Positions 452-26,061 of a DNA stretch of 64,000 nucleotides are shown here, in pieces. The position numbers and the translations under genes were made by a program. Positions within the stretch are counted from its first letter, which is position 1, and every line of letters begins with the position of its first letter. A model generated the notes under the pieces. It made no database searches. It was not told where the DNA came from and saw only the letters and a list, made by a program, of their open reading frames with translations. Source of the DNA: a virus; the UHGV virus genome UHGV-1455077, one strand, 5' to 3'.

Positions 452-3208
452 TTAATATCCTTTTGCTACCCAATTAATTTCTTCAGATATACTTGTATCA
501 ACTGTAAATCCATCATTATCATAAGATAAAATTTTAATACCATTTGCCATTACATACAATAATTTATTTTTATAAGATTCTGGGAATGAAACTTTACCAT
601 TAACAGGTGTTGAAACACCCCATTGTTCTATAATTTTTGTAGCAAATTTATTTTCATCTTGAATCCAGCTTTCAATTTTATTCTCAAATAATGTTCCTGT
701 AAAGCCGCCACTTTGTGCAATAGTATTTAAATCTTGTGTTGGATAATTATTATATAAATGACAAGTATTATTACTTGTGAATGAACCTATTTTAGCATAT
801 CTTGTATAACCATCAGGCAATGTTGGAATTTCACCAGATTCTGTACCAATATCAACAATATCTCCTGTATCATTAGAAATAACAAATACATTAAACTTTG
901 TATTTTTTTTCATAGTTGTTGAAAATATTGCCATAATATCAATTTCATTTGCACCAACAGCATTTCCATATGAATTTTTAATTGTTAAACCAATAGTTTT
1001 GTCTATTTGTGGAGTTGGAATTTCAATGTGTGAGTGACCATAATCTTCATTTAATGCTGTAAATGAAGCAACCACATTTGATGGTTCAGCTACCCAAATA
1101 TCAATATCTTTAGAACGGTTTTCTAATCCAGAACCTTGATTGTAAAAATCAATAGCTGTTACACGTAAAGGATAAATTGCTGTATAATACCAAGTTGCAG
1201 AAGTAACATCTGTTAACCAACCATTACCTGTTTGTTTTAATCCATCCATTGCTCTATAACCTTCACGGTCAATCTGTGCAGATGAAGTTATAACTTTACC
1301 TAATGGTTGTGTATTACTTGTCATTACTGGTTGAATCCAAGTTTCTTGTTCATCTTTTAATGAACTACCATTATTATTTCCATCTTTAAATTTTTTATTT
1401 GGATTTTTAATAATAATTGAATTAATTTTTAATAAAACTGTTCCTGTTGAATCCATAATTGAACCTGGTTGAATAACAAGAGTATCATCAGCTTCATATG
1501 GATGTTCAGGGTATGTATCAGGAATTGTTCCATATATAATTTCTGATGTAAAACCATTTTGTGTATTTCTTAATTTAATATCACCTGCTAAAGTTTTTGT
1601 ATCAACTAAATTAAAATCTGATGCATCTTCATTAACTTGTGGAATTTTACCAGCATTATTAGTAAATGTTGTTAAAGATTTAATATTTAAATCTTCTTTT
1701 AAAGTATCTTTAGTAATTAACTCATAACCACTTTCATCTTGTTTTACTCTTAAATATTCTAATGAATGTGATGTTGGTCTTGGTAATTCTGTATTTATTA
1801 AAGTCATATTACCAAAAATTGTTACTTCAACTCGTGCTCCGCTTTCAATATTATCAGTAAATGTAATAATTGTTCCTGTTGTATCAATATTATAATTATC
1901 AGATTGAATTAAAGTATTACCAATATTAATCATTAATGAATTTTTATCATTAACTGAAACTGGTAATGTAATAGTATTTGTTTCATTAACTATATCAAAG
2001 AAATAATTTAATTTATTATAACCTGCTAAGAGTTGCCATTTTGAATTATCAAAAGGTTCGGAAGCAATATTATCTTCAAGACAAATATACATTGCATTAT
2101 CATAAATACAAACATTTCCTTTTGCAAATGATAATCCGACTTGCCATTGTATAATATTAGCTCTTTCATCATATGTATGCAATACCATATTTCCCATAGA
2201 TAAAACTTCAATTATTACACCAGCTGGAATTGGTTTAATAAAAGTAATTGTTTTATGGTCAGGTTCTAATGTATAATTTTGAGATTGTTGTAAAATGCCC
2301 CCAGCATTAATAATTACAACTTCTTTATTAGGAATTTCATCGGTTAAAGTAATTGAAGTTGTTTCTTCAGTTGCATTATAAAAAAATTCTCTTGCTGCTG
2401 AAAAACCTGCTAAAATTTTCCATTTACTTTCATCAAATCCAACATCAGATGTATGGTCTTCAATACATTCAAATAATGCATTTTCATAAATAACAACCGT
2501 TCCTTGTGAATATTCAGTATTTGGTGTCCAATCAACTAATGTTGCATCATTTGTACCAATAATTGTAAAATTAGGATAATCACCAGTAATAGCAATATTT
2601 TTACCAGGATTTAATGAAATAATTTGGTCAGGTTTAGTATTTGTAACAATATTATCACGAGAAATTGCAATACCATCACCAGCTGTATAACTATTATTAC
2701 TTGCTGAAATTAACACATTGTTTGAATCAGGAGAATATTCAACAGTAATATTTTGATTTCCTGGTTTAATATTTTGTTGAACTAAATATTTAGAACTATC
2801 AGGAAAATTAACTTTAAGTGAAACAGTATTGTCAGTTTCACTTGGAATAACTGATATTGATGAATCTTCAGCTTTAATATCTTCTTTAGTTAAAAAATCT
2901 TCAACAGGATGGTCAGTTGTTGAAATTGTAACTTTATTAGTATCTGGGTCAGTAGTTACAGTAATATTTGCACCTGCAACAATATCTTCAGATTTTAAAT
3001 TATCTTTTGTTAAATCTTCAACATCTTCAGCTGTTAAGTGAATTGATTTATTATCAATGTGTTCTTGAACTGTTTTTTCTGTTTCAGTTGTTGTTCCAGT
3101 AACATCTTCAACAATAGTTGCTAAAGTTTCTGGATTAATTTTTTGATAATCATCACCATTTTTAACAACTAATTCAGCAATTGTTTTATTATCTAAAATA
3201 CTAACCAT
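452..3208 (-). CDS. tail fibre / receptor-binding protein with two CBM5/12-like (chitin-binding type) repeats
   Basis: 918-aa ORF. Repeated motif W..(N/Q)..Y..G..V.Y....(F/Y).C..(D/H)..S......(S/N)KW..LAG occurs twice. Long Thr/Asn/Ser-rich beta-rich N-terminal region typical of fibres. AATAAATA late-promoter-like box upstream at 3240-3247. Confidence 0.6.
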   Translation of the reverse strand: MVSILDNKTIAELVVKNGDDYQKINPETLATIVEDVTGTTTETEKTVQEHIDNKSIHLTAEDVEDLTKDNLKSEDIVAGANITVTTDPDTNKVTISTTDHPVEDFLTKEDIKAEDSSISVIPSETDNTVSLKVNFPDSSKYLVQQNIKPGNQNITVEYSPDSNNVLISASNNSYTAGDGIAISRDNIVTNTKPDQIISLNPGKNIAITGDYPNFTIIGTNDATLVDWTPNTEYSQGTVVIYENALFECIEDHTSDVGFDESKWKILAGFSAAREFFYNATEETTSITLTDEIPNKEVVIINAGGILQQSQNYTLEPDHKTITFIKPIPAGVIIEVLSMGNMVLHTYDERANIIQWQVGLSFAKGNVCIYDNAMYICLEDNIASEPFDNSKWQLLAGYNKLNYFFDIVNETNTITLPVSVNDKNSLMINIGNTLIQSDNYNIDTTGTIITFTDNIESGARVEVTIFGNMTLINTELPRPTSHSLEYLRVKQDESGYELITKDTLKEDLNIKSLTTFTNNAGKIPQVNEDASDFNLVDTKTLAGDIKLRNTQNGFTSEIIYGTIPDTYPEHPYEADDTLVIQPGSIMDSTGTVLLKINSIIIKNPNKKFKDGNNNGSSLKDEQETWIQPVMTSNTQPLGKVITSSAQIDREGYRAMDGLKQTGNGWLTDVTSATWYYTAIYPLRVTAIDFYNQGSGLENRSKDIDIWVAEPSNVVASFTALNEDYGHSHIEIPTPQIDKTIGLTIKNSYGNAVGANEIDIMAIFSTTMKKNTKFNVFVISNDTGDIVDIGTESGEIPTLPDGYTRYAKIGSFTSNNTCHLYNNYPTQDLNTIAQSGGFTGTLFENKIESWIQDENKFATKIIEQWGVSTPVNGKVSFPESYKNKLLYVMANGIKILSYDNDGFTVDTSISEEINWVAKGY

Positions 3209-3239
3209 TTAATAATTCCTCTTGTAAATCTATAAAAGT

Positions 3240-3247
3240 ATTTATTC
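3240..3247 (-). promoter_or_regulatory. T4-type late-promoter-like box AATAAATA upstream of the 918-aa fibre gene
   Basis: - strand reads AATAAATA about 35 nt upstream of the ATG at 3208. Same 8-mer recurs upstream of other structural genes. Confidence 0.4.
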
Positions 3248-3306
3248 ACAGTTTGAAGTATTAAAAAGGTTTGTTCTTATTTATTAAATAAGAACAAAGG
3301 GAATAA

Positions 3307-3714
3307 ATGATGACAGATACAAGTAAATTACCTATTTCACGTGTTGGTGAATTAAATGATAAATTAAGTGAAATTAATAATCATCTTAATTTATTATCTA
3401 ATAAAATAACTGCATTAGAAAATAATTTATCTAATAAAAATTATGTAATGCAATATCCAACTATTACCGAAACAGGAAGAATAACAATTCCTGTCAATAC
3501 TGATTATACATTAACAGAAAATTGCTGGGTATGGTGGGGAAATACTGTTTATGTAGGAGATAGAATTTTTTATATCAATGGTATTATAATAGGAAGGTCA
3601 TATGGTCGTTCTGGAAGCTGGGAAGAATTTAATTCAATGTTTATCCCATTAAAAGCAGGAAATGTTATTAGACATACAGGAGATAATTCTATATGTTACA
3701 TTTATCCTAATTAA
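3307..3714 (+). CDS. hypothetical protein (MMTD-family small protein; paralog of 42669..43058)
   Basis: 135-aa ORF with N-terminal MMTDxSK and a coiled-coil-like segment followed by a Trp/Gly-rich C-terminus. Shares N-terminal signature with 42669..43058. Confidence 0.5.
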   Translation: MMTDTSKLPISRVGELNDKLSEINNHLNLLSNKITALENNLSNKNYVMQYPTITETGRITIPVNTDYTLTENCWVWWGNTVYVGDRIFYINGIIIGRSYGRSGSWEEFNSMFIPLKAGNVIRHTGDNSICYIYPN

Positions 3715-3720
3715 TAACAA

Positions 3721-3742
3721 AGCTCCCAAATGGGAGCTTAAC
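3721..3742 (+). terminator. hairpin aagctccca-aat-tgggagctt followed by T-rich tract
   Basis: Perfect 9-bp inverted repeat immediately after the stop codon of 3307..3714. Confidence 0.5.
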
Positions 3743-3744
3743 TT

Positions 3745-4055
3745 ATTTATGTATTATTTCAGTCGCAGTCATTTCTGTTGCAAGGATAACTGTTTCCCCA
3801 CTAAACATAAAAGCCTTCATCCGTTAGGATTAAGCAGCAATTACATTATAGTTATAGTTAACGTTTTCGTTAGCATTCATTTTATTTTGAACCGATATTG
3901 GTGGTATCTCGCCAGGTACATTATAGCCATTTTCAATAATGTTCAAAATTCCGTCCGCCCCTAATACATTGATTTTTCATAATATTTTCCTGGTGGAGCG
4001 GCTGGGAGTTAAACCCAGGTCACTATCATTTACTTTGGGATAATTTATCAGCACC
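3745..4055 (-). ncRNA. ssrA: tmRNA (ssrA-like), apparently circularly permuted (two-piece). Acceptor piece ends with CCA at 3981; coding piece starts GGGGCGG at 3951; tag ORF at 3874..3829.
   Basis: - strand reads ...CCTGGGTTTAACTCCCAGCCGCTCCACCA (T-arm, 3' acceptor strand, CCA), almost identical to the E. coli ssrA 3' end CGGGTTCAACTCCCGCCAGCTCCACCA. After 30 nt it reads GGGGCGG (complementary to CCGCTCC with one G-U). Then GCT AAC GAA AAC GTT AAC TAT AAC TAT AAT GTA ATT GCT GCT TAA = ANENVNYNYNVIAA*, and GCTGCTTAATCCTAAC resembles E. coli GCAGCTTAATAACC. Exact 5' and 3' boundaries not determined. Confidence 0.6.
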
Positions 4056-4064
4056 ATTCAAAAT

Positions 4065-4095
4065 TATTTATAAATTATTTTATTTTAATTGTCAA
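4065..4095 (-). promoter_or_regulatory. sigma70-like promoter (TTGACA-N16/17-TATAAA) oriented into the tmRNA gene
   Basis: - strand TTGACAattaaaataaaataattTATAAA. Member of a recurring intergenic TTGACA...TATAtt motif family. Confidence 0.4.
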
Positions 4096-4156
4096 TAAAA
4101 TAATTTAGGACATAAATACAGTTATAAGCAATTCACAAATTTAATAAAGGATTATA

Positions 4157-4960
4157 ATGATATATTATGTTTATCAAATAACAAATAAAATTAATAATAA
4201 AATTTACATTGGAAAAAGAAAATATAAAGGAGAAAATCCTTTATTAGATTCATATATGGGGTCAGGAAAATTAATTAAAGAAGCAATTAAAAAATATGGA
4301 AAAAATAATTTTCAAAAAAATATTATTCAAAGTTTTGATAATGAAAATGATGCTTTTAAATTAGAAAAAGAACTTGTAACAAAAGAATTCTGTAACAGAA
4401 AAGATACTTATAATATTCACGAAGGTGGTACAGGAAGTTTTTCTCACATTAATAATAAACCAATTGAAAAAAGAGAAAATATTATAGCTGTTAGAAAATT
4501 ATTAAATTCAGGAGTAAAATTTGGTGGAAAAAAATATTTTACAGAAGAAACTTATCAAAAAATTAGTAATTTTAATAAAGAACGATGGAAAACTTGGAAA
4601 GAAAAACCAGAATTAATGCCAGATTTTTATATAAAACCTCGTACAGAAAAATTTAAACAACATTTATCAGAAATTTTTAAAGGTCAAAATAATCCTAATT
4701 TTGGTAAACATTGGTATATTCATAAAAAAGCTATTAATATTAATGAAAAGAAAATGTTTTTTGATAATGAAATACCACAAGGTTTTATTACAGTAAAAGA
4801 ATGGAAAGATTTACATAAAAATAAGAAAAATAAAGCATATGGAAAACATTGGTATAATGATGGTAAACAAAATTATTTTTTATCCCCAGATGATGAAAAA
4901 ATTAAAATATTAAGTAAAGGGCGTATTGGTACTCTTTTTAAAAAAATTGAAAGTAATTAG
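4157..4960 (+). CDS. GIY-YIG family homing endonuclease (freestanding)
   Basis: N-terminus IYYVYQITNKINNKIYIGK...KYG matches the GIY-YIG module (compare I-TevI GIYQIKN..KVYVGS). 267 aa, Lys-rich C-terminal DNA-binding-like region. Confidence 0.7.
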   Translation: MIYYVYQITNKINNKIYIGKRKYKGENPLLDSYMGSGKLIKEAIKKYGKNNFQKNIIQSFDNENDAFKLEKELVTKEFCNRKDTYNIHEGGTGSFSHINNKPIEKRENIIAVRKLLNSGVKFGGKKYFTEETYQKISNFNKERWKTWKEKPELMPDFYIKPRTEKFKQHLSEIFKGQNNPNFGKHWYIHKKAININEKKMFFDNEIPQGFITVKEWKDLHKNKKNKAYGKHWYNDGKQNYFLSPDDEKIKILSKGRIGTLFKKIESN

Positions 4961-4997
4961 AAAAAGATTTATATTAAATTTTAATGGTTCAAAGTTT

Positions 4998-5113
4998 ATT
5001 CGTTTTGCAAGCTGGTGGTAATTGGAATGATTCATCTAACTACGGAGTTGGTTCACGTAATAGTAACAATTCCCGTGCTAATTTGAATGACAATAACTCG
5101 GTGCGGGGCTTGA
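4998..5113 (+). repeat. DGR template repeat (TR)
   Basis: attcgttttgcaagctggtggtaattggaatgattcatctaactacggagttggttcacgtaatagtaacaattcccgtgctaatttgaatgacaataactcggtgcggggcttga. Matches the reverse complement of 6675-6790 except at 18 TR-adenine positions and one T. In the target frame TR encodes QAGGNWNDSSNYGVGSRNSNNSRANLNDNNSVRGL (Asn AAY-rich). Confidence 0.85.
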
Positions 5114-5119
5114 TATAAT
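5111..5119 (+). promoter_or_regulatory. extended -10-like element TGATATAAT at the TR 3' boundary (possible RT promoter)
   Basis: cttgaTATAATc immediately after the TR/VR homology ends; about 120 nt upstream of the RT start. Confidence 0.25.
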
Positions 5120-5238
5120 CTCTTTTTTGAGCATTAGCTGAATTTTGAACCTTGTCTTAACAGGCTAAACATCAAAAACCAAAAAATAATATTAGTAAAA
5201 GAATTTGAACATATTATTTTTTATTAAGAGTAAAATAA

Positions 5239-6570
5239 ATGAAAAGAATTAATAATTTATGGCACGAATTTACTTCTCAAGAAAATTGGTTTATTGCTCG
5301 TAAAAGAGCTTTACAAGGCAAAGTTAAAAAGTTTTGTGTAAAAGCTATTATGAGAAAAGGTGATGAGTATTTAGAAAAAATTCGCCAAGAAGTAATTAAT
5401 GGAACTTTTGAATTTAAAGGTTATAAAGAACATACAATTTATGAACCTAAAGAAAGAAAAATATATGTTGCTCGGATTGAAGAAAGAATTTATCATTGGG
5501 CATCAATGATGATTGCTGAACGAATTTTTGAGCCAACATTTATTTATGATAGTTATTGTTGTCGTAAAAATAAAGGTCAACATAAATGTTCTGCCAGATG
5601 TAAAGAAATTGTTAAACATAATGATTATTGTTTAAAATTAGATATTTCAAAATTTTATCCAAATATTAATCATAACATATTAAAAGATTGTTTAGCAAGA
5701 AAAATTAAAGATGTAAAATTTTTAAATGCTTTATATGCTATTATTGATAGCCATAATAAAGATACTGGTAAAGGAATACCTATTGGAAATTATTCCTCGC
5801 AATTTTTTGGCAATATTTATATGACTAAATTGGATATGTTTGTTAAACATACTCTAAAATGTAAAAATTATTTAAGATATTGTGATGATTTTTGTCTATT
5901 TTCTAATGATAAAAAATACTTAAATTGGTGCAAAGAAAAAATAATTGAATTTGTTACTAATGAACTTGATATGAAATTAAGTAAATGTGATTTATTTAAA
6001 ACAAAGCAAGGTGTAGATTTTGTTGGATATAGGCATTTTCCACAATATACTTTAGTTAGAAAAAGAACTGCTAAAAAAGTTAAGAAAAGATTATTAAAAA
6101 TTCAATATAAATTGAATAATTGTAATCTTACACAAAAAGAACTTTTTAGAATGAATGGACAAGTTGCCAGCTCTTATGGTTGGTGTAAACACGCTGATTC
6201 ATATAGATTTATGAAAAAATATAAAATAGAAGAAAGCTTAAGGGAGATAATTATGAGATATTCAGAATTTAAAAATAAATTACATACAAATAAAATGTTA
6301 TCAATGAAAATAAACGATTTTATTAATAAAGAAATTACAATAACTGGTTGGGAATATTGTAAAAAGAAAGATGATGATGAAAAAGTTAAAACTGTTAAAA
6401 TCTTTTTACGTTATGATAATGAAGAAAAAATCATTATTACAAAAGCATCAGTTATTATTCGTGATTTAGAAGAAATTTCTCAATTAGAAAAAGAAGAAAA
6501 TACAAAAATATTTCCTTTTGAAACTGTATTGAAAAAAGATACAAAACGGAATTATTTTTATTTTGAATAG
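5239..6570 (+). CDS. DGR reverse transcriptase (Brt-like) with ~110-aa C-terminal extension
   Basis: Collinear with Bordetella phage BPP-1 Brt. N-terminus MKRINNLWHEFTSQENW vs MGKRHRNLIDQITTWENL. IYEPKERKIY vs VYEPKPRLIS. YDSYCCRKNKGQHK vs YTYACRPDKGTH. LKLDISKFYPNI vs LKSDFSKFFPSI. DGR-specific GIPIGNYSSQFFGNIY (IGxxxSQ replaces QGxxSP). Catalytic RYCDDFCLF (YxDD). GVDFVGYRHFP thumb motif. Confidence 0.85.
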   Translation: MKRINNLWHEFTSQENWFIARKRALQGKVKKFCVKAIMRKGDEYLEKIRQEVINGTFEFKGYKEHTIYEPKERKIYVARIEERIYHWASMMIAERIFEPTFIYDSYCCRKNKGQHKCSARCKEIVKHNDYCLKLDISKFYPNINHNILKDCLARKIKDVKFLNALYAIIDSHNKDTGKGIPIGNYSSQFFGNIYMTKLDMFVKHTLKCKNYLRYCDDFCLFSNDKKYLNWCKEKIIEFVTNELDMKLSKCDLFKTKQGVDFVGYRHFPQYTLVRKRTAKKVKKRLLKIQYKLNNCNLTQKELFRMNGQVASSYGWCKHADSYRFMKKYKIEESLREIIMRYSEFKNKLHTNKMLSMKINDFINKEITITGWEYCKKKDDDEKVKTVKIFLRYDNEEKIIITKASVIIRDLEEISQLEKEENTKIFPFETVLKKDTKRNYFYFE

Positions 6571-6660
6571 AGTTGGGCATCACAAGGATGCCCTGCTTAT
6601 AGTATTAAGACCGCACAAGGCGGTCTAAAAAAGAAGGATTTGAGTTTATCACTCAAATCC
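6571..6660. promoter_or_regulatory. three consecutive hairpins between the convergent RT and target genes, immediately 3' of VR
   Basis: gggcatcacaaggatgccc (7-bp stem), agaccgcacaaggcggtct (7-bp stem), ggatttgagtttatcactcaaatcc (10-bp stem overlapping the target stop codon). Confidence 0.5.
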
Positions 6661-7728
6661 TTTAGCATTAGCTGTCAAGCCCCGCACCGAGCTACCGTCA
6701 AGCAAACTAGCACGGGAATAGTCACTCACACGCGAACCAACCCCGCAGTTAGATGAATCACCCCAATAACCACCAGCCCGCAAAACGAATCCTTCACCGT
6801 AAAAAGAACCTTTACCCATATCAGTATTAATTACTGTCCAACCACTTCCACCAGATGCACCAGTTGAATTTAAATATTGCCATAAAGCACCACAACAATC
6901 TTCAATACCATAAACAGAAATCATTCTTCTGCCAGCAGTATCTACGTGTCCACCAGTTGTTACAGGGTCAGCCGCACCTGAAATTGCAGTTCCTTGATTT
7001 GAACCAAATGCATAAACAGTAAATTCATTATCATTTGCTAAATGTTTTCCAACTGAAAATAAATCTTCAACGTGATTTTGATAATAACGTGTATCTGTAA
7101 TTGTACCACCAAATACTGATTTTGTATTTAAACCAGTTCCTGATTGTAAATAAATATCACACCATTTATCAATGGCATCAATATATGCCATACCATCAAC
7201 ATCAGCAAATCTCGGACGGAATGAAATACAAGATACTGAATTTGGTAAAATATCACCTGCATTATATCCTGATAATAAATGACCAGAAATAGTTCCAACA
7301 TTTGCACAAACAGTATGGAATGAAGATAGCCATTGAGTATTTGCTGTGGTATAACCAGTTGGAGCATCCGCATTTAATGAACAAATTAATTCTTTATCAG
7401 AAGTAATATAAATGTAATAAGTTTTTCCTGCCTGTAATGATGAACCAGTATCTAATATTGAAACAGGATTAATTTCTTTTGCTTCATAATTTTCATAATT
7501 AACCAATTCATTATTAAATACTAATGGAATATTACAAGGTTCAATAACAATTGTAGATTTATCAAAACAATTAGTTTTTCCTAATCTAAATAATTGTGCG
7601 TATGATTTACCTTTAATTGTAGTATCTAATTCTTTAATATGAACAAATCTAAAAGTTGGAGCAAATCCGCCTAATAAAGTTTGTAATCCATATATACGAT
7701 TTAATTGTACTTTTGAAATATCTATCAT
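6649..7728 (-). CDS. DGR target (variable) protein; C-terminal C-type-lectin/FGE-like fold carrying the VR; probable receptor-binding (tail fibre tip) protein
   Basis: 359-aa ORF whose last ~40 codons (FVLRAGGYWGDSSNCGVGSRVSDYSRASLLDGSSVRGL) are the VR. C-terminal GG.W...G pattern typical of CLec-fold DGR targets. AATAAATA late box upstream (7754-7761). Gene has noticeably higher GC than its neighbours. Confidence 0.8.
   Translation of the reverse strand: MIDISKVQLNRIYGLQTLLGGFAPTFRFVHIKELDTTIKGKSYAQLFRLGKTNCFDKSTIVIEPCNIPLVFNNELVNYENYEAKEINPVSILDTGSSLQAGKTYYIYITSDKELICSLNADAPTGYTTANTQWLSSFHTVCANVGTISGHLLSGYNAGDILPNSVSCISFRPRFADVDGMAYIDAIDKWCDIYLQSGTGLNTKSVFGGTITDTRYYQNHVEDLFSVGKHLANDNEFTVYAFGSNQGTAISGAADPVTTGGHVDTAGRRMISVYGIEDCCGALWQYLNSTGASGGSGWTVINTDMGKGSFYGEGFVLRAGGYWGDSSNCGVGSRVSDYSRASLLDGSSVRGLTANAKGFE
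6675..6790 (-). repeat. DGR variable repeat (VR) at the 3' end of the target gene
   Basis: Sense strand attcgttttgcgggctggtggttattggggtgattcatctaactgcggggttggttcgcgtgtgagtgactattcccgtgctagtttgcttgacggtagctcggtgcggggcttga. Identical to TR except where TR has A (18 sites) plus one T-to-G. GC-rich 3' end ctcggtgcggggcttga shared with TR, then the sequences diverge. Confidence 0.85.
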
Positions 7729-7753
7729 TCTAATACCTTTTGCTTATATCAAA

Positions 7754-7761
7754 TATTTATT
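7754..7761 (-). promoter_or_regulatory. late-promoter-like AATAAATA box upstream of the DGR target gene
   Basis: - strand ...tttcAATAAATAtttgatataagcaaaaggtattagaATG. Confidence 0.4.
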
Positions 7762-7766
7762 GAAAT

Positions 7767-7800
7767 AAAAATCCACCAGCAATATTGCTGGTGGATTTTT
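7767..7800 (-). terminator. hairpin aaaaatccaccagcaatattgctggtggattttt with flanking A/T runs (bidirectional)
   Basis: 12-bp perfect inverted repeat between 7827..8228 and the DGR target gene. Confidence 0.55.
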
Positions 7801-7826
7801 TAGTATAACAACAATGAAAAATTTTA

Positions 7827-8228
7827 TTACTTTTCTTTTTTAATCAATTCAATCGTCTGTTTACCAAGTTCAGTAATCATTGATTTAACAATATCTTCTT
7901 CGGTTTCACAACGATATTCATTATAAGAACCTTCAGCATTGTGATATTTTAAATTACAAACTATTTCTTCTAAATCTTCAGATGGCAATGTACTTTCATA
8001 AACTTCATCTGTATGTTTATCTTTAATAAAAATTGTAAGTTCATATTCATCTAAATGAGCTTCAATGATTTCAAAATCATTTGACAATTTCATAGGAAAT
8101 GTCTGCTCTACCCCATTAACTGTTTTAACTTCGGTTGAATTGCTAAAAGCAAACCAACTGACACAGCCAACCAAAAATGCAACTAAAATTGTTAAACCTA
8201 AAACCTGAATTTTTTTAATCATCTTCAT
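7827..8228 (-). CDS. putative lipoprotein
   Basis: N-terminal signal peptide with lipobox LVGC (MKMIKKIQVLGLTILVAFLVGC). Confidence 0.5.
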   Translation of the reverse strand: MKMIKKIQVLGLTILVAFLVGCVSWFAFSNSTEVKTVNGVEQTFPMKLSNDFEIIEAHLDEYELTIFIKDKHTDEVYESTLPSEDLEEIVCNLKYHNAEGSYNEYRCETEEDIVKSMITELGKQTIELIKKEK

Positions 8229-8410
8229 TTTTTTTATTCCTTTTCAAAAATACCTTTATAATTACGATATGAATATTTGTCGTTTGGATTAAATTTACAA
8301 CGATAAAATCCATTAAGTTTCTTTAGCCATTTAGCATAATCACGTTTTTCTTTTTCTTTCTGTTTTTTCAATTTTTCTTCTAATGTTTTTTCTTCCATAG
8401 CATACTCCTA

Positions 8411-8692
8411 TTATTTTTTAATAATTTTTCCAATTGAGCGAATACCATAATCCAACTCAAAAGGTATATTTTCGACTGAATTATACTGATATTCAACAAC
8501 ATAATTATTAGTATTGTATTTTTGATACAATCCTCTAATTTTAAAAGATGCATTAACCATTTTCCGACTTCCAACAACCATATTATATGGAATCGTTTCA
8601 ACAATCTGTCTGGTTTTAATATCTTTTATGATAACATTACCAATGATTCTTTGAAGTTTCATCATTATTCCCCTTTCTTTAACAATTACCAT
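8411..8692 (-). CDS. hypothetical protein
   Basis: 93-aa ORF; the overlapping 8380..8604 alternative is less protein-like. Confidence 0.35.
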   Translation of the reverse strand: MVIVKERGIMMKLQRIIGNVIIKDIKTRQIVETIPYNMVVGSRKMVNASFKIRGLYQKYNTNNYVVEYQYNSVENIPFELDYGIRSIGKIIKK

Positions 8693-11026: not shown

Positions 11027-11102
11027 TGGCACTCCCAGAGGGATTCTAACCCCCAATTTAACGTCCGTAGCGTTATGGTTTATACAATTAGCCTATGGGA
11101 GC
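11027..11102 (-). tRNA. tRNA-Arg (anticodon ACG), CCA encoded
   Basis: GCTCCCA acceptor paired with TGGGAGT. Anticodon stem TAACG/CGTTA, loop CTACGGA. T-arm GGGGG-TTAGAAT-CCCTC (non-canonical T-loop). 3' GCCA. Confidence 0.5.
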
Positions 11103-20573: not shown

Positions 20574-20592
20574 CTCCTAAATAATTTTTATA

Positions 20593-20665
20593 TAGGCGAA
20601 GTGGGATTTGAACCCACAAAATTTAGATTTTGAATCTAACACGTATGCCATTCCGTCATTCGCCC
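20593..20665 (-). tRNA. tRNA, anticodon CAA, class I (short variable arm); identity uncertain (Leu-decoding anticodon on a non-Leu scaffold)
   Basis: GGGCGAA...TTCGCCT acceptor. Anticodon stem TTAGA/TCTAA, loop TTCAAAA. T-arm GTGGG-TTCAAAT-CCCAC. 5-nt variable loop. No encoded CCA. Confidence 0.5.
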
Positions 20666-20714
20666 AATTAGTTTATTTAGTATATCTTAAATATAAAATT
20701 AAAACAAAATATTT

Positions 20715-23700
20715 TTATTCCATAAATTTAATTGTTTTTTCAATAAAATCTATTTCTTTCTGATTTAAATTATATTTTTCATATAATTCTTTATCTGTCC
20801 AAGATTTAGAAAAATCAAGCCAAGGTACAAACTGAAAATTATTTGTAGAAATATTCATTCCTGATAACGTTTGTAAAATTAAAAATCTGACAAATTTTGT
20901 TCTTAAATATGTATATATATTCTCTGTTTCTTGATATGTATCAGTAGGACAAATAATTAAATATGATTGATTGCATATTTGATTGGGTTTTAAAATTTCC
21001 ATTCTGCTTAAAACTCTATACATACTATTTCTATCAGGATTACCTGCGTGTTCACAAGATAATTTTGAAATTAAAACTTTAAATTTGTTAATAAAATTTT
21101 TACCTTTCTGTATTTTATTTTTTTCAACATAACCCCAACCAGAGCTACTTAAAATTTCACAATCATCTGGTAATACTTTATCTTCTGTTCCTTTAAATGT
21201 TGATAAAAATCCAAAAGGAGTTTGAGGACTGCAACCACCGTCTTTTGATAAAAAAGAATTACTTTTTGAAACAACTTTATGAACAATAGATAACGCTTCA
21301 TTACGGCGGATTAATATATTAAATTCATTCAATTTTCGAGTAGTTTTTTGTACACCATCTTTTATGACACTAGAAAATTCACATAAACCATTATATTTAC
21401 TATCCCTTAAAAAATAACATATTCCGCCATTGATGTCAACATTAGGAAAGCAAATTTTAGAATCTATAAAATCAACAATATTTTTGATTCTTGTATCAGA
21501 TAGCATTTTTTTTCGAAAATCATTTAATCCTACACCACCAGAAAACCAACGAGCAGGAATAATCATTATTAAATATCTTGGGTTCAATTTTATGGCGTGT
21601 TCAACGAACTTATTATAAAGAGGGATAGCTCCTAATCCTTTGCCTTGTTCATTAACTTGTAATTGATATGGTGGATTTGTAATAATGGTAGTAAAATCTG
21701 TTTTATCCCAATAATCAAATGTTAACGCATCACCATTATGTAAATGTGATTTGATAACTGTTAAAAATTTATCTTCATCAAAATTAACATTATTTTTCTG
21801 ATAAATTTTTCTAACCATATTACACATATTAGCCAGAGTTAAAATATAATTCTTTTCTTGTAATTCAACCCCATAAAGTTGATTAGTTATGATATGATTT
21901 ACACGCTCTATTTCATTAGGAATTTTATTTTCTAATGATTTCATTATTCGTTCAAGCAATAATTGTAAAAATATTCCACTACCACAACACGGTTCAAGAT
22001 ATGTTGAATTTTCATTTTCTAAACAATCTTGTGGTATTAAATCAATCATATTATTTGCTAACCATTCAGGTGTAAACACTTCTCCAAATTCTTTAATAGC
22101 ATTGTTTTCCATTATAATCCTTTTTAAAGCATAGTATTCTTGTGTTCCCCACGTTTTTACTAATGCATTATTTATATGATTTAATTTATTTATAAATTCA
22201 GTTGAATCTATAATTTTATCAATGTTATTAATAATATCTGAAAAACTTTCACTATTTTTATATGATTCTTTTGGAAACCAAACATTATATAATAATTTAT
22301 TATTAAATGGCTGATTTAAAAAATCATTTATACCTGTTACAATCCCTTTTTCTTGAACCAATAAAAGGTCATCAATATTCATAGTAATTAAAATCATAGA
22401 ACAATATGATAAAAGCATATCAAGTAACTTTTTAGCTTGCTCAATATCTTTTTCTGTTAAAATTCTATTTTCATTTGAAACTTCAATAGACTTATCTTGT
22501 CTATTATTATTTTCAATACTAATAACATCAATGCCGTTAGTATACTTTATTTTTGGTTCAAATACATTATTATTTTTCTTTTTAGTAAAAAATTCAAATG
22601 TAAAGTCTTTTAAACTTCCAAATTGTTTAAATACTATGTCATTTGTTAATGAATCAAACAAGTGTTGAATACATTTCGGGCTATAATATGCATCCATCAT
22701 TTGATTAATAAGTTTTGTTTCATCAATCATATTAATTTCTTGATACTGAATTTCCATACAAGTTGAAAGCAAATATTTTAATTCTCTATTATTTTTTGTA
22801 AAATTTCCATTACCATTTGAAGCAATAGATATATTCGCCATTTGAAGAAATCTTTCTTTTAATGGGTCAATAAAAAAAGTAATATGCTGATATTTTCCAT
22901 CATTGTTTTTAAATGCTTGGCGAACTCTCCCCATACATTGCATATAGTTTGAAAATGATTTTGAATCATTCATCATAATAATAGCGTGATTTTTTTTAAT
23001 AGTTGTTCCAATTGTGCATTGTTTTACTGTACAGAAAAATTTTATTCTTCCATTAAAACAATCAAAAAAATTATTAACTCTATCAATTGCTTTTAAATCA
23101 ATTTGATTACTTAATTCTTCCATTATATCTTTATTTGTACAAGAAAAATCAACATCAACACCATAATTTTCTAATTTTTGCAAGCATTTAACAATTAATG
23201 CTAATTCTTCACAATTATTACAAATCATTTGAATATTGGTTGGATATTGAATTGATGGCTCATCATTAAAAATCGTTTTATTATTAAAATGATTACGAAT
23301 AATTTTTTTAAAACCATCAATTTTAATACCTTTCTTTAATGTATTAATTAAAGAAGTTAAAGTTTTTTCAAGATGGATAGGATTTGCAACCATTTCAGAA
23401 ATTGAATTATATTGAACATCAATAGCATTTGTTTCTGGTTGAAACAAACAAGAAATAACTGTTGGATTATTGTAATAATCCATATTACCATTACAAATAT
23501 CATTCAATCTATCAATTTCATCAAACATATAACCATTTTTACCATATAATGAATTTGTATATGGTGTTGCCGAACATAAAATTAATTTACAATCTTTTGG
23601 TAATAAATTAATAATTTTTTGTTGTTTTTCTGAACCATAAGCCAAATGAGCTTCATCATAAACAAATAAATTTGTTTGTTCATAGATTGTTTTAGCTTGT

Positions 23701-24743
23701 GCTTTAATTGATGAATTATAGCTATATTGAACTGACAAAAATACAACATTTAATTTATCTAAACATAATTTAATTTTTTTATCTAAGTTAGTACAAATAT
23801 TAATTTTATCAGGAGAAAAAATCTTTCTAAAATCTTCAATTACACCATTATAAATTTCAGGAATAAAACATTGATAAACTATTGTTTTTCCTTTATAGTT
23901 TTCACCAAAATATCTTTTAATAATTTCTGCACAGATAATTGTTTTTCCTGAACGACAAGGCATATTTAATAACACACTTTTATTACCATTTTGTAAAAGT
24001 TTTAAAATAGTTGTTACGGCTTCTTCTTGTCTTAATCTTAATTTAATAGGTGAATTATTTATGTATATAGTATTGAATACTTTTTCAACATCTCCATATT
24101 CATCAATTATTTTTTGAGCTTTAACATAATACATATTAAAGTCAATAAGTTTAATTGATGAATTATATATTTCATTTTTTGTAATATATTGCTTATTAAT
24201 TTTTCTCATATCTAAAAATACAATAGATAAATCAAAAACATCATTTGTTTCGATACAAGATTTCATTAACTCTAAAATATTAATAGGTAATGATGTAAAA
24301 ATAAGTCCGTGTCTTGTAACATTTAATACATTAGAATATTTTTTCAATTCAGCAGAAATTTCACTATGAGTTACAGAAAGTGTGGATTTACTTTTGCTTA
24401 AAATATTAATTTTTGATGAACCAATGTACCACTCATTTTCAATTAAAAATGATATATCACCATTATGACTACCTGAACAAGGTATTGGTTTATAAATTTT
24501 TTCAATCTTTCCATTAGTTGTAATGGTTTTGATATTTTTATGATTAATTGTAAACACATCTTTAAAAAGTTTCTCAAAAAATTTTCCTGCCAAACCTTTA
24601 TTAGAATTGTATTTACATAATTCTTCAATAATATCAATTAATGTATATAAGTCATTTTTTAAAATAAGTTGAATTAATTTATATTGTGTTGTTTCATCTG
24701 TATTTTTTTTGATATATTGTTTTATATCATTAATAGTTAACAT
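20715..24743 (-). CDS. SF2 helicase / gamma-class N6-adenine methyltransferase fusion protein (Type ISP-like single-polypeptide restriction-modification enzyme, or DarB-like anti-restriction methyltransferase-helicase)
   Basis: 1342 aa. Walker A LLNMPCRSGKT, motif II LFVYDEAHLA (DEAH), motif III CSATP, motif VI QCMGRVRQ. Methyltransferase motif X GEVFTPEWL, motif I YLEPCCGSGIFL, motif IV IITNPPYQ. About 170-aa N-terminal and about 250-aa C-terminal domains unassigned. Confidence 0.7.
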   Translation of the reverse strand: MLTINDIKQYIKKNTDETTQYKLIQLILKNDLYTLIDIIEELCKYNSNKGLAGKFFEKLFKDVFTINHKNIKTITTNGKIEKIYKPIPCSGSHNGDISFLIENEWYIGSSKINILSKSKSTLSVTHSEISAELKKYSNVLNVTRHGLIFTSLPINILELMKSCIETNDVFDLSIVFLDMRKINKQYITKNEIYNSSIKLIDFNMYYVKAQKIIDEYGDVEKVFNTIYINNSPIKLRLRQEEAVTTILKLLQNGNKSVLLNMPCRSGKTIICAEIIKRYFGENYKGKTIVYQCFIPEIYNGVIEDFRKIFSPDKINICTNLDKKIKLCLDKLNVVFLSVQYSYNSSIKAQAKTIYEQTNLFVYDEAHLAYGSEKQQKIINLLPKDCKLILCSATPYTNSLYGKNGYMFDEIDRLNDICNGNMDYYNNPTVISCLFQPETNAIDVQYNSISEMVANPIHLEKTLTSLINTLKKGIKIDGFKKIIRNHFNNKTIFNDEPSIQYPTNIQMICNNCEELALIVKCLQKLENYGVDVDFSCTNKDIMEELSNQIDLKAIDRVNNFFDCFNGRIKFFCTVKQCTIGTTIKKNHAIIMMNDSKSFSNYMQCMGRVRQAFKNNDGKYQHITFFIDPLKERFLQMANISIASNGNGNFTKNNRELKYLLSTCMEIQYQEINMIDETKLINQMMDAYYSPKCIQHLFDSLTNDIVFKQFGSLKDFTFEFFTKKKNNNVFEPKIKYTNGIDVISIENNNRQDKSIEVSNENRILTEKDIEQAKKLLDMLLSYCSMILITMNIDDLLLVQEKGIVTGINDFLNQPFNNKLLYNVWFPKESYKNSESFSDIINNIDKIIDSTEFINKLNHINNALVKTWGTQEYYALKRIIMENNAIKEFGEVFTPEWLANNMIDLIPQDCLENENSTYLEPCCGSGIFLQLLLERIMKSLENKIPNEIERVNHIITNQLYGVELQEKNYILTLANMCNMVRKIYQKNNVNFDEDKFLTVIKSHLHNGDALTFDYWDKTDFTTIITNPPYQLQVNEQGKGLGAIPLYNKFVEHAIKLNPRYLIMIIPARWFSGGVGLNDFRKKMLSDTRIKNIVDFIDSKICFPNVDINGGICYFLRDSKYNGLCEFSSVIKDGVQKTTRKLNEFNILIRRNEALSIVHKVVSKSNSFLSKDGGCSPQTPFGFLSTFKGTEDKVLPDDCEILSSSGWGYVEKNKIQKGKNFINKFKVLISKLSCEHAGNPDRNSMYRVLSRMEILKPNQICNQSYLIICPTDTYQETENIYTYLRTKFVRFLILQTLSGMNISTNNFQFVPWLDFSKSWTDKELYEKYNLNQKEIDFIEKTIKFME

Positions 24744-24858: not shown

Positions 24859-24945
24859 TGGTGGGCTTGGTGGGACTCGAACCCACAAGAGAATACTCCC
24901 GACAGATTTTAAGTCTGTTGCGTATACCAATTCCGCCACAAGCCC
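24859..24945 (-). tRNA. tRNA-Leu (anticodon TAA), class II, CCA encoded
   Basis: GGGCTTGTGGCGGAATTGGTA...ACAGA-CTTAAAA-TCTGT, long variable arm, GGGTTCGAGTCCCAC, CCAAGCCCACCA. Confidence 0.7.
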
Positions 24946-24957
24946 AATGTTTATTAT

Positions 24958-25045
24958 TGGTGGGCATACCGAGAGTCGAACTCGGATGGAGATTACCCCC
25001 GTCAGATTTTAAGTCTGATGCGTCTACCAATTCCGCCATACGCCC
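24958..25045 (-). tRNA. tRNA-Leu (anticodon TAA), second copy with divergent sequence, class II, CCA encoded
   Basis: GGGCGTATGGCGGAATTGGTAGACGCATCAGA-CTTAAAA-TCTGA, long variable arm, GAGTTCGACTCTCGGTATGCCCACCA. Confidence 0.65.
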
Positions 25046-25097
25046 AATTATTTTTTATGAATATATTTATATCATTTATTTTAAATAATGTCAACAA

Positions 25098-25349
25098 TTA
25101 TTTTTTACTATTTGCTAATTTATTTAAAAATTTCATCAATTGTTTTTTATCACAATCTAACAAATCATCAATATTTTTATAACCCATATGATTTAATAAA
25201 TCGTGATAACATCCTTCACAAACTTCAATACCAAAAAGATTAAACATATTTTCGTCATCATCTTCTGGACATAAAAAACATTTTCCAGTTTTATTTAAAT
25301 CATCTTTTTCATATGCAGTCTTTTTAAATTTATTTAAAAAATTAAACAT
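25098..25349 (-). CDS. small zinc-ribbon-like protein
   Basis: CFLCP...CEGCYHD Cys4-like pattern. Confidence 0.4.
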   Translation of the reverse strand: MFNFLNKFKKTAYEKDDLNKTGKCFLCPEDDDENMFNLFGIEVCEGCYHDLLNHMGYKNIDDLLDCDKKQLMKFLNKLANSKK

Positions 25350-25395
25350 TAATTTCTCCTAATTATATAAAAATCTCCATAATTTGTATATGGAG

Positions 25396-25432
25396 ATTAT
25401 ATTATAAATTATTAATTGTCAATATATTATTT
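25396..25432 (-). promoter_or_regulatory. sigma70-like early promoter
   Basis: - strand TTGACAattaataatttataaTATAAT immediately downstream of the tRNA-Cys 3' end. Confidence 0.35.
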
Positions 25433-25519
25433 TGGAAGTCTGGACGAGATTCGAACTCGCATCATCTTTTCAGATATACGGTTTTGCAGACCGCTGTATA
25501 GCCATTCTACCACCAGACT
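25433..25519 (-). tRNA. tRNA with GCA (Cys) anticodon, U73 discriminator and an unusually long (~17-nt) variable arm; CCA encoded
   Basis: AGTCTGG/CCAGACT acceptor. Anticodon stem GCGGT/ACCGT, loop CTGCAAA. Variable arm ATATCTGAAAAGATGAT. T-arm GCGAG-TTCGAAT-CTCGT. 3' TCCA. Confidence 0.5.
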
Positions 25520-25526
25520 TATAAAA

Positions 25527-25601
25527 TGGTACGGTAAGTGGGAATCGAACCCACATATTTAGCTTGGAAGGCTAACGTAATAGCCATTATACCATTACCG
25601 C
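25527..25601 (-). tRNA. tRNA-Gly (anticodon TCC), CCA encoded
   Basis: GCGGTAA...TTAGC-CTTCCAA-GCTAA...GTGGG-TTCGATT-CCCAC-TTACCGT-A-CCA. Confidence 0.6.
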
Positions 25602-25603
25602 AT

Positions 25604-25678
25604 TGGAGCGACTTGCGAGAATCGAACTCGCATCTAAACCTTGGCAAGGTCTTGTATTAACCATTATACGAAAGTCGC
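25604..25678 (-). tRNA. tRNA-Gly (anticodon GCC), CCA encoded
   Basis: GCGACTT...AGACC-TTGCCAA-GGTTT...GCGAG-TTCGATT-CTCGC-AAGTCGC-T-CCA; U8, A14, GG18-19, U33, A37 all present. Confidence 0.65.
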
Positions 25679-25689
25679 ATATATGAAGG

Positions 25690-25985
25690 TTCTTTTCACT
25701 CCGATTAAAAGAACCTACAACTTAACCTAACGGTTGGATAACCTTTATTAACGTATGCTATTTATCCAACAAGTATTCACATACAAAGGTTAGCTTAATG
25801 ATTACATACTACTTTATCGTCTATGTTACAGCCTTGGGCAAGGTTAGGTCAACTGTGTCTTACTGTTTCTGTCTTTCGGTTATCACGACTTACCTAAGAA
25901 AATTCCTATTAGCCTTTTGGATGGTTGCCCCTATCATTCGTGTGTTAGATTTATGTATGTAATCTCCCAAACATAGAATGGGAAA
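25690..25985 (-). ncRNA. ORF-free, hairpin-rich, relatively GC-rich ~300-nt segment inside the tRNA cluster; candidate structured RNA of unknown class
   Basis: No ORF on either strand. GC clearly above flanks. Stems ggttcttttaatcggagtgaaaagaacc (9 bp), ttggataa...ttatccaa (8 bp), ccttgcccaagg, tccca...tggga. Sits between tRNA-Trp and tRNA-Gly on the same strand. Confidence 0.3.
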
Positions 25986-25987
25986 CT

Positions 25988-26061
25988 TGGCAAGGGCAAA
26001 TTGATTTGAACAATTACTGCAAATTTTGGAGATTTGAGTGCTACCGTTACACTATACCCTT
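25988..26061 (-). tRNA. tRNA-Trp (anticodon CCA), CCA encoded
   Basis: AAGGGTA/TGCCCTT acceptor (one G-U). D-arm GTGTAACGGTAGCAC. Anticodon stem CAAAT/ATTTG, loop CTCCAAA as in E. coli tRNA-Trp. T-arm AATTG-TTCAAAT-CAATT. 3' GCCA. Confidence 0.6.

Follow-up and report, generated by a model that had tools for sequence, protein, structure and literature searches.

SegB of phage T4 recognizes a 27-bp site whose core, GGTTCRANTCC, corresponds to the T-arm of tRNA genes, and it often cuts just after CCAR (PMC2330249). It has been shown experimentally to target T-arm DNA and to secure near-100% inheritance of itself along with the tRNA genes around it (PMC2330249). Homologues of SegB are enriched next to tRNA genes and can amplify the genes at their side, SegB itself by adaptive segmental amplification; transfer-messenger RNA (tmRNA) goes unmentioned in this 2026 survey of their neighbourhoods, which used tRNAscan-SE (PMC13096335). 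The locus described here, positions 3,745-7,728 of a 64,000-nucleotide stretch (the window) of the virus genome UHGV-1455077, carries a gene for a probable SegB-like endonuclease beside a predicted two-piece tmRNA gene, followed by a diversity-generating retroelement (DGR) directed at a tail-fibre gene. The genome is that of a human-gut jumbo phage of ~285 kb and 25% GC, common in human-gut metagenomes.

tmRNA genes are already known from huge phages, where ARAGORN was the tool of the survey (PMC7162821), and alpha-type permuted tmRNAs are otherwise nearly confined to Pseudomonadota (PMC11915505, Table S2). Homing endonucleases have been associated with the tmRNA T-arm in intron-form genes, in which a group I intron interrupts the T-loop and sometimes carries an endonuclease gene (PMC11915505). 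No earlier description of the endonuclease-tmRNA pairing reported here was found in the literature, and likewise nothing specific on a link between DGRs and GIY-YIG enzymes.

The region is most probably made up of two independent modules lying side by side, the tmRNA gene with its endonuclease gene and the DGR, and not of a single island; the account as a whole, in which a SegB-type endonuclease and a tmRNA gene adjoin an ordinary, active fibre DGR, is given a probability of about 0.7. An earlier reading made from the letters alone (the sequence-only reading) had described a cluster of mobile and retro-elements between two fibre genes, and its inventory holds. A tmRNA gene is matched by Rfam at 3761-4099 on the minus strand above the gathering scores, a free-standing GIY-YIG endonuclease gene lies at 4157-4960 on the plus strand, all parts of a DGR were identified (template repeat (TR), variable repeat (VR), reverse transcriptase (RT) and Mtd-like target), and fibre-like genes flank the whole, a 918-aa protein with CBM5/12 on the left and the target, matching a PHROG 'tail protein', on the right. 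The endonuclease gene does end close to TR, at a distance of 37 nt where 38 had been given.

Comparisons were made with 13 close relatives, of which three are IMG/VR contigs (22.6, 203 and 282 kb) and the other ten, of 204-288 kb, come from human-gut metagenomes; one relative (L008) is the same strain as the window. The sequence-only reading had looked to the presence or absence of the 3.7-7.8 kb segment in related phages; gene order proved identical in all 13 contigs fetched.

The tmRNA gene and its SegB-like neighbour

The tmRNA gene scores 87.5 bits against RF04321 (tmRNA_permuted; gathering score 47) and 77.9 bits over the whole of RF01849 (alpha_tmRNA; gathering score 50), and was not detected by ARAGORN at 3761-4099. 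Its promoter on the minus strand consists of TTGACA (4095-4090), a 17-nt spacer and TATAAA (4072-4067). There follow an acceptor piece (~4055-3991), which ends ...CCGCUCCACCA at 3991 with the CCACCA terminus encoded, an intervening segment of 29 nt (3990-3962), and a coding piece that starts from G1 at 3961 and opens GGGGCGG. The tag open reading frame (ORF) at 3874-3830 encodes ANENVNYNYNVIAA and then a stop, beginning with Ala and ending in AA. All seven acceptor-stem pairs and all five T-stem pairs can form, and a G3:U pair is present. Within the T-arm, GGTTTAACTCC at 4005-4015 agrees with the SegB core at 10/11 positions, and the acceptor piece ends CCAG.

As in the two-piece tmRNAs of Alphaproteobacteria (RF01849/RF04321; PMC11915505), the match to the alpha model is full-length and includes the CCUUGCAACAGAA motif near the 3' end, acceptor piece, intervening segment and coding piece follow in the same order, and the tag is of the ANxN...AA type. 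The present gene differs in its carrier, a 25%-GC gut jumbo phage, and its T-loop, UUUAACU, is atypical. Unlike the tmRNA genes reported from huge phages (PMC7162821), it escapes ARAGORN; since that program served the huge-phage survey, such genes may be under-counted.

The structure was compared among six homologues, all of which lie beside related endonuclease genes. G3:U is invariant in the six, 71 of the 72 acceptor and T-stem pairs are canonical, and compensatory double changes are found at acceptor pairs 5 and 6 and at T pairs 1, 2, 3 and 5. The tag frames are kept (ANENVNYNYNVIAA, ANDNVNYNYNVMAA, ANDNLAYNYNVMAA), with differences that are synonymous or conservative, as in coding sequence, and the TTGACA-17-TATAAA promoter is also kept; the mature parts are retained around an intervening segment of 7 to 84 nt. 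These features point to a genuine two-piece gene of the alpha type, which is presumably expressed and whose transcript would be processed into two pieces. An ORF at 3662-3964 on the plus strand was rejected as a gene, as it overlaps the tmRNA on the opposite strand and is a codon-usage outlier (z = 6).

A search of genome contigs for a host carrying the acceptor pattern GCCGCTCCACCA-N{15,45}-GGGGCGGA gave, among the matches listed, only chance ones in GC-rich genomes, the pattern being too loose; none of them was similar to the tmRNA, and the search yielded no clue to the host. Among isolated phages (INPHARED), the only match to the tmRNA was one of 50 nt in an unannotated faecal contig.

The endonuclease gene lies on the 5' side of the tmRNA gene, from which it diverges, and encodes 267 amino acids. 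The protein matches PHROG 314 'homing endonuclease' (5.8e-39) and NUMOD3 above the Pfam cut-off (23.7 bits; cut-off 20.4), and its N-terminal domain aligns to the catalytic domain of I-TevI (1LN0; E = 0.006). Among isolated phages, the protein is matched most closely by a T4-like gene that carries the annotation 'best matched to T4 SegB', with 38% identity over residues 1-210. Judged by this match and its annotation, rather than by an alignment to T4 SegB itself or a phylogeny, the enzyme probably belongs with the SegB family, and T4 SegB would be its closest characterized relative. With T4 SegB (PMC2330249; PMC13096335) it shares a GIY-YIG N-terminal domain, a DNA-binding tail of the NUMOD type, a free-standing gene and a location beside genes that encode a T-arm. 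The differences are that its partner is a two-piece tmRNA gene instead of tRNA genes, that in the window lineage the endonuclease gene is inverted relative to that partner, and that its cleavage specificity is predicted. Co-conversion of flanking DNA by T4 SegB would have its counterpart here in the invariant tract described below. In relation to the intron-form tmRNA genes (PMC11915505), the association of a homing endonuclease with the T-arm is the same; here the intron is absent (none was found by Rfam around the endonuclease gene), and the endonuclease gene is external to the tmRNA gene, which is permuted instead of interrupted.

The 64-kb window contains no paralogue of the endonuclease. 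Two independent knock-out alleles circulate among the relatives, L147 having a nonsense mutation at 4511 and L148 a deletion of 43 bp (4516-4558), and the gene is therefore dispensable. Two other, apparently split endonuclease genes were discounted, that of L146 on account of a scaffold gap (a run of N) and that of L149 because its left part is unrelated sequence.

The pairing with a tmRNA gene recurs in many unrelated phages. In contrast to the two-piece tmRNAs of Alphaproteobacteria, the tmRNA described here is always accompanied by a SegB-like endonuclease, and a permuted tmRNA adjoins the endonuclease gene in each of the six lineages inspected (the window lineage, L230, L232, L235, L236 and L238). 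In the homologues at 44-48% identity (L235, L236, L238), the permuted tmRNA follows on the same strand, 0-21 nt past the stop codon. These homologues have unrelated contexts, L235 lying among T4-like replication genes and L236 among PstS and ligase genes, and the contigs have 31-48% GC. The endonuclease gene is always on the acceptor-piece side of the tmRNA gene, and it is inverted in the window, L230 and L232. When the endonuclease-tmRNA units of L235 and L236 were compared with isolated phages (INPHARED), only the N-terminal domain of the endonuclease or nothing relevant was matched.

A survey of IMG/VR added 20 loci with matches that span most of the endonuclease at 30-42% identity. A permuted tmRNA of the alpha or beta type lies directly downstream in 14 of these, three belong to tRNA arrays, a contig end truncates two, and the last one lacks both a tmRNA and a tRNA array. 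Taken over all contigs with the pairing, GC content ranges from 25 to 48% and both tmRNA types occur. A pattern detector of our own, which recovered 6/6 positive controls, gave no tmRNA call in control phage loci amounting to 1.23 Mb; because it under-calls (7/80 loci, against 14/20 by Rfam), it served for this negative control only. Should the pairing reflect targeting, it would extend SegB biology by adding tmRNA genes to the known tRNA-gene targets, and would provide a concrete route for the movement of tmRNA between phages.

Some homologues of the window protein stand inside dense tRNA arrays (L258, L292 and L303, with 7-11 tRNA genes within 3.6 kb), as T4 segB does in the T4 tRNA gene cluster. 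At another locus (L264:1274-2358), the endonuclease gene is enclosed by two tmRNA-like elements. The upstream one is a tRNA-like two-piece domain with CCA and without a tag; the downstream one is a full beta-type tmRNA with a degenerate acceptor end (..CUACACUA) and the tag ANDELFALAA. This double arrangement may be a duplication intermediate.

The diversity-generating retroelement

The DGR of Bordetella phage BPP-1, ordered mtd-avd-TR-brt, provides the reference for the second module. In the window, TR (4998-5113, plus strand; 116 nt, 31 adenines) is 84% complementary over 116 nt to VR (6675-6790, minus strand), which occupies codons ~313-351 of the 359-aa target gene (6649-7728, minus strand). 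RT (5239-6570, plus strand; 443 aa) begins 125 nt downstream of TR and is convergent with the target gene. It matches PF00078 (RVT_1; 4.4e-15) and PHROG 1423 (5.2e-99), carries the motifs IGNYSSQ and YCDD, and has a C-terminal extension of ~110 aa that is also covered by matches to RTs of Bacteroides phages. The target, an Mtd-like tail-fibre or receptor-binding protein, matches the second domain of Mtd (PF21916; 6.2e-10) and PHROG 11262 'tail protein' (1.7e-40). The spacer between TR and RT is predicted to fold into a DGR-type RNA structure (5120-5223, plus strand) that resembles Rfam RT-14, with 41.1 bits, below the gathering score of 48.1, and E = 2.3e-4 on 421 nt.

The retroelement is complete and active in the population. 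In the window, 18 of the 19 mismatches between TR and VR fall at TR adenines; the 13 other genomes have 18-24 mismatches at TR adenines and 0-2 elsewhere. Across the 14 genomes, VR varies at 28/30 columns with a TR adenine and at 12/86 other columns (Fisher p = 3e-15). Moreover, non-adenine polymorphisms of TR (5055, 5073 and 5088) and a 1-nt indel at 5105 recur in the VR of the same genome, so that TR-to-VR transfer continued after the lineages split. Over most of 2.8-8.8 kb, L002 and L003 agree at 99-100% (0.91-0.97 within the first part of RT), and in the bin that contains VR their identity is 0.91. The single non-adenine mismatch of the window (TR T, VR G, at 5068-5071 / 6717-6720) is also present in L008, and L002 and L007 each show one T>G mismatch somewhere in the repeat pair; the mismatch of the window could be a rare non-adenine error or a later point mutation.

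In common with BPP-1, mutagenesis from TR to VR is adenine-specific, the target is an Mtd-like fibre protein with VR at its C-terminus, the 3' end of VR is GC-rich (resembling an initiation-of-mutagenic-homing sequence) and followed by a hairpin, and RT carries the motifs IGxxxSQ and YxDD. In contrast to BPP-1, avd is absent nearby, the target gene is convergent with RT instead of upstream on the same strand, RT has the ~110-aa C-terminal extension, and the TR-RT spacer is RT-14-like. The hairpin (6634-6662, minus strand), which has a perfect 12-bp stem and a 5-nt loop, is followed by a T-run and lies 13 nt 3' of VR (z = -6.6 for the region); its placement suggests the target-recognition hairpin of the DGR, and it is also terminator-like. 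Two more strong hairpins (GACCGC...GCGGTC and GGGCATC...GATGCCC) occur between the convergent RT and target genes at 6571-6648. A promoter-like site is found at 4947-4975, just before TR.

Length variants were encountered in two relatives, L016 with an RT of 404 aa and a target of 410 aa, and L149 with an RT in two parts (97 + 255 aa); decay of the DGR copies or faulty assembly may lie behind them. As the phage is common in gut metagenomes, a locus that diversifies its fibre bears on phage-host dynamics in the gut.

One island or two modules

Divergence is distributed very unevenly over the locus. The segment 3716-4975 (1,260 nt), which holds the tmRNA and endonuclease genes, shows no difference from L001 and L003 and one from L002, and 3901-4900 has no segregating site across the 14 genomes. 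With the same relatives (L001 and L003), RT is 89%, the target 91% and the genes of the right flank 68% identical. At a flank divergence of ~10.5%, the calculated chance of 1,260 identical sites is ~10^-61, and the knock-out alleles indicate that strong constraint is not the cause of the zero divergence. On the left, the tract stops at the bidirectional terminator hairpin common to the tmRNA gene and the small ORF to its left (3720-3739); on the right it fades inside TR, the first differences being at 5055-5088. The first ~30-90 nt of TR belong to the conversion tract associated with the endonuclease. The exact endonuclease protein is recorded on 411 contigs, and the 90% clusters hold 68 distinct sequences for the endonuclease, 339 for RT and 314 for the target.

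In more distant relatives, the modules come apart. L019 (RT 56%, clamp loader 77%) has TR, RT and target, whereas the tmRNA and endonuclease genes are absent from the 14.8 kb read; homologues of p133 and of the 135-aa ORF on the left flank of the window locus are adjacent there, and the DGR is on the other side of the fibre block. Conversely, in L230 (endonuclease 87% and fibre 47% identical in amino acids) the fibre (-), tmRNA (-) and endonuclease (+) genes are followed by unrelated genes with no DGR beside them, and in L232 (endonuclease 60%) the same three genes, in the same orientations, are followed by a dUTPase gene, with no RT gene called in 14.8 kb. The adjacency of DGR and endonuclease is thus lineage-specific. 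DGR cassettes moreover vary in type and position independently of the endonuclease. A different DGR on the far side of the fibre in L230 (L230:1-3125) has its parts on one strand: a 369-aa target (weak DUF6273), a 138-aa ORF in the avd position, TR (1306-1431), VR (2028-2153), an Rfam RT-2 RNA (1053-1301) and RT. The histories of tmRNA and endonuclease also appear incongruent: in comparison with the window, L230 is 94% identical in the endonuclease gene, 99% in the intergenic region and 70% in the tmRNA body, and the corresponding figures for L232 are 77, 77 and 84% (all in nucleotides).

Past the endonuclease stop codon, L230 shares with the window the 37-nt spacer and the initial ~31 nt of TR, and diverges at window position ~5029. 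Such a stub could stem from an endonuclease unit whose donor already abutted TR or from local deletion of a DGR, neither of which is favoured. The stub ends in a 13-bp perfect palindrome of TR sequence (AACTGGTGGTAAT...ATTACCACCAGTT; L230:7793-7880), 3 nt from the stop codon of a convergent GGACT gene, which could be no more than a terminator, or else the scar left when a break close to window position 5029 underwent fold-back repair. TR stubs, which a homing endonuclease beside TR can leave behind, are useful markers of past rearrangement. Among relatives retrieved by other anchors, L152 (56%, from a clamp-loader scan) lacks DGR, tmRNA and endonuclease within 10 kb, and the remaining results of that scan were too distant. 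Two RT relatives, L017 (65%) and L018 (59%), were set aside as uninformative on the upstream side, as their contigs start at TR and have only RT in common with the window.

The proposed explanation, the most economical one for the first module, draws on the analogy with SegB. When related phages infect the same cell, the enzyme would cleave a sensitive tmRNA locus of the partner phage in its tRNA-like part. The genome that has the endonuclease would serve as the template for repair, and the stretch copied would comprise the endonuclease gene, the tmRNA gene or its promoter, and a little sequence from the other side, which in this lineage would be the first 30-90 nt of TR. Independently, the TR-spacer-RT transcript would be reverse-transcribed with adenine-specific errors and the cDNA would replace VR at the C-terminus of the Mtd-like fibre protein, diversifying receptor binding. 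Homing of this kind would account for a zero-divergence tract centred on the endonuclease gene, for the incongruent tmRNA and endonuclease histories, for the TR stub of L230, for the knock-out alleles, which belong to the usual life cycle of endonucleases, and for the recurrent pairing. The endonuclease would move at most the first tens of nucleotides of TR, and not TR-RT.

Several points weigh against this account. In the diversity profile, ten of 14 genomes had been found by way of the exact endonuclease protein and bias that part of it, only L001-L003 being unbiased, and over 2.8-8.7 kb only two lineages are in effect compared. No empty site, with the tmRNA present and the endonuclease absent, was found in a close relative. 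The enzyme falls just below two Pfam cut-offs (SegE_GIY-YIG 24.4, cut-off 25; GIY-YIG 17.3, cut-off 22.6), and its presumed target site is transferred from an enzyme of 38% identity. The ORFs scanned in 1-9.2 kb include nothing Avd-like; as some DGRs do without Avd, its lack is no bar to membership. Finally, the neighbouring fibre gene also has ~100%-identical segments in common with individual relatives. Over 1-1400, the window is 99-100% identical to L002 and ~70-90% to L003; over 1600-2800 it is ~100% identical to L003 and 82-95% to L002. This mosaic shows that recombination is frequent in the region generally, and general homologous recombination could yield such tracts without an endonuclease.

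From the same mosaic, it may be argued that the tract reflects ordinary homologous recombination, the sweep of a favourable tmRNA allele or purifying selection, with the endonuclease a passive passenger in an inherited tmRNA neighbourhood. The structural selection on tmRNA and the comparison of what are in practice two lineages favour the same explanation, which is nevertheless judged unlikely. Selection cannot leave zero synonymous change over 804 coding nt beside an RT that differs at ~11% of sites, and the knock-out alleles indicate weak constraint on the endonuclease. Furthermore, the pairing holds down to 30-48% protein identity, from 25 to 48% GC, with alpha and beta tmRNAs and in two orientations, which argues for repeated association over inheritance, and the targeting of T-arm DNA by SegB is an experimental result (PMC2330249). 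That the endonuclease has been domesticated is a good deal harder to credit. It would then be either a DGR accessory nuclease in an avd-like position or a SegB-type amplifier of the tmRNA/DGR locus against host defence, as in the case of SegB and tRNA-Tyr. Only 37 nt separate the gene from TR, which is on the same strand; the promoter-like site lies at 4947-4975, no Avd gene is nearby, SegB does drive adaptive segmental amplification of its neighbours (PMC13096335), and a second, partial tmRNA copy flanks the endonuclease gene of L264. Yet endonuclease and DGR each occur without the other, knock-out alleles circulate, and alignment shows amplification of the locus in 0/14 genomes.

The sequence-only reading had in effect proposed that the whole of 3.7-7.8 kb is one horizontally acquired island of higher GC, in which the endonuclease mobilizes TR-RT and the tmRNA gene acts as the site of integration or recombination. 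Its view of the region as a hot spot of recombination or mobility survives in outline, given the zero-divergence tract, the L230 unit with its TR stub and the solitary DGR of L019; the specifics do not. That the homologues of the 135-aa ORF and p133 are adjacent in L019 gives window 3715-7826 the look of a single insertion, and the position of the L019 DGR across the fibre block and the 31-nt TR stub right behind the L230 endonuclease gene can be read in the same way. However, the contrast between 0% divergence in tmRNA and endonuclease and ~10% in RT and target assigns them different histories, the conversion tract ends inside TR while RT is ~11% diverged, and the endonuclease is linked to the tmRNA gene instead of the DGR, as tmRNA and endonuclease occur without an adjoining DGR (L230, L232), the DGR without them (L019), and a different DGR elsewhere in L230. 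Even tmRNA and endonuclease differ in history between the window, L230 and L232. For integration at the tmRNA gene there is no evidence: no integrase gene was seen among the ORFs of 1-9.2 kb, the part of the window scanned for one, and a repeat search confined to 3000-8500 returned neither a second copy nor a duplicated fragment of the tmRNA.

Composition likewise speaks against such an island. GC in 3745-7728 is 0.272, against 0.2565 for the window (sd 0.0143 for windows of the same size), which is only the 85th percentile. This small excess is due to structured RNA and repeats (tmRNA 0.333, TR 0.414, VR 0.543), and the two genes taken to be mobile fall under the mean (0.214 for the endonuclease, 0.233 for RT). 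Neither GC3 nor synonymous codon usage sets endonuclease, RT and target apart from the rest of the genome (residual z -0.82, -0.37 and +0.63), and the switch in GC skew at 4-6 kb coincides with the plus-strand genes. Acquisition of the region as a single island is accordingly regarded as improbable, if slightly less so than domestication of the endonuclease.

Beyond two modules with SegB-like homing at the tmRNA gene, it is suggested, tentatively and at somewhat less than even odds, that a SegB-like clade has specialized on phage two-piece tmRNA genes and spreads them between phages of unrelated hosts, while the tract reaching into TR homogenizes the master copy of hypermutation between strains. 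If endonucleases do carry such genes around, an alpha-type tmRNA in a phage need not mean an alphaproteobacterial host; and next to TR, such an enzyme can replace part of one strain's template by that of another. A bolder conjecture, the least probable of all the ideas raised here, is that cutting just after CCA, combined with duplication of the SegB type, lies at the origin of circularly permuted tmRNA genes; the 7-84-nt intervening segment and the partial second tmRNA copy of L264 would then be its traces.

Flanking genes and genome context

To the left of the tmRNA gene lie the small ORF (3307-3714, plus strand; 135 aa), which has an N-terminal coiled coil, and the long tail-fibre gene (452-3208, minus strand), whose 918-aa product combines CBM5/12 with a weak gp53-like C-terminus. 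Together with the terminator hairpin and the parts of the two modules, these genes leave nothing of the region unexplained. The small ORF appears to be an exchangeable cassette, as most relatives have an unrelated 171-aa 'Collar'-domain ORF at the same place, and its N-terminal ~110 nt recur elsewhere in the relatives' loci (87% at L001:612-720). Among isolated phages (INPHARED), no near DNA match to window 1-12 kb was found.

Eight tRNA genes (Leu x3, Gly x2, Cys, Trp and Arg) are present in the window, at 24859-26061, 11027-11102 and 20592-20666. Perfect SegB-core motifs (GGTTCRANTCC) occur in three of the eight, and no endonuclease gene lies beside these tRNA genes. Further along, a 1342-aa helicase fused to an Eco57I-type methylase (20715-24743), a GroEL-like chaperonin (43146-44780) and a DnaB helicase (52087-53436) are typical jumbo-phage content. 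A second large tailspike-like gene (33949-36993; 1014 aa) combines a weak Mtd_N match, below the Pfam cut-off, with a pectate-lyase fold and CBM5/12.

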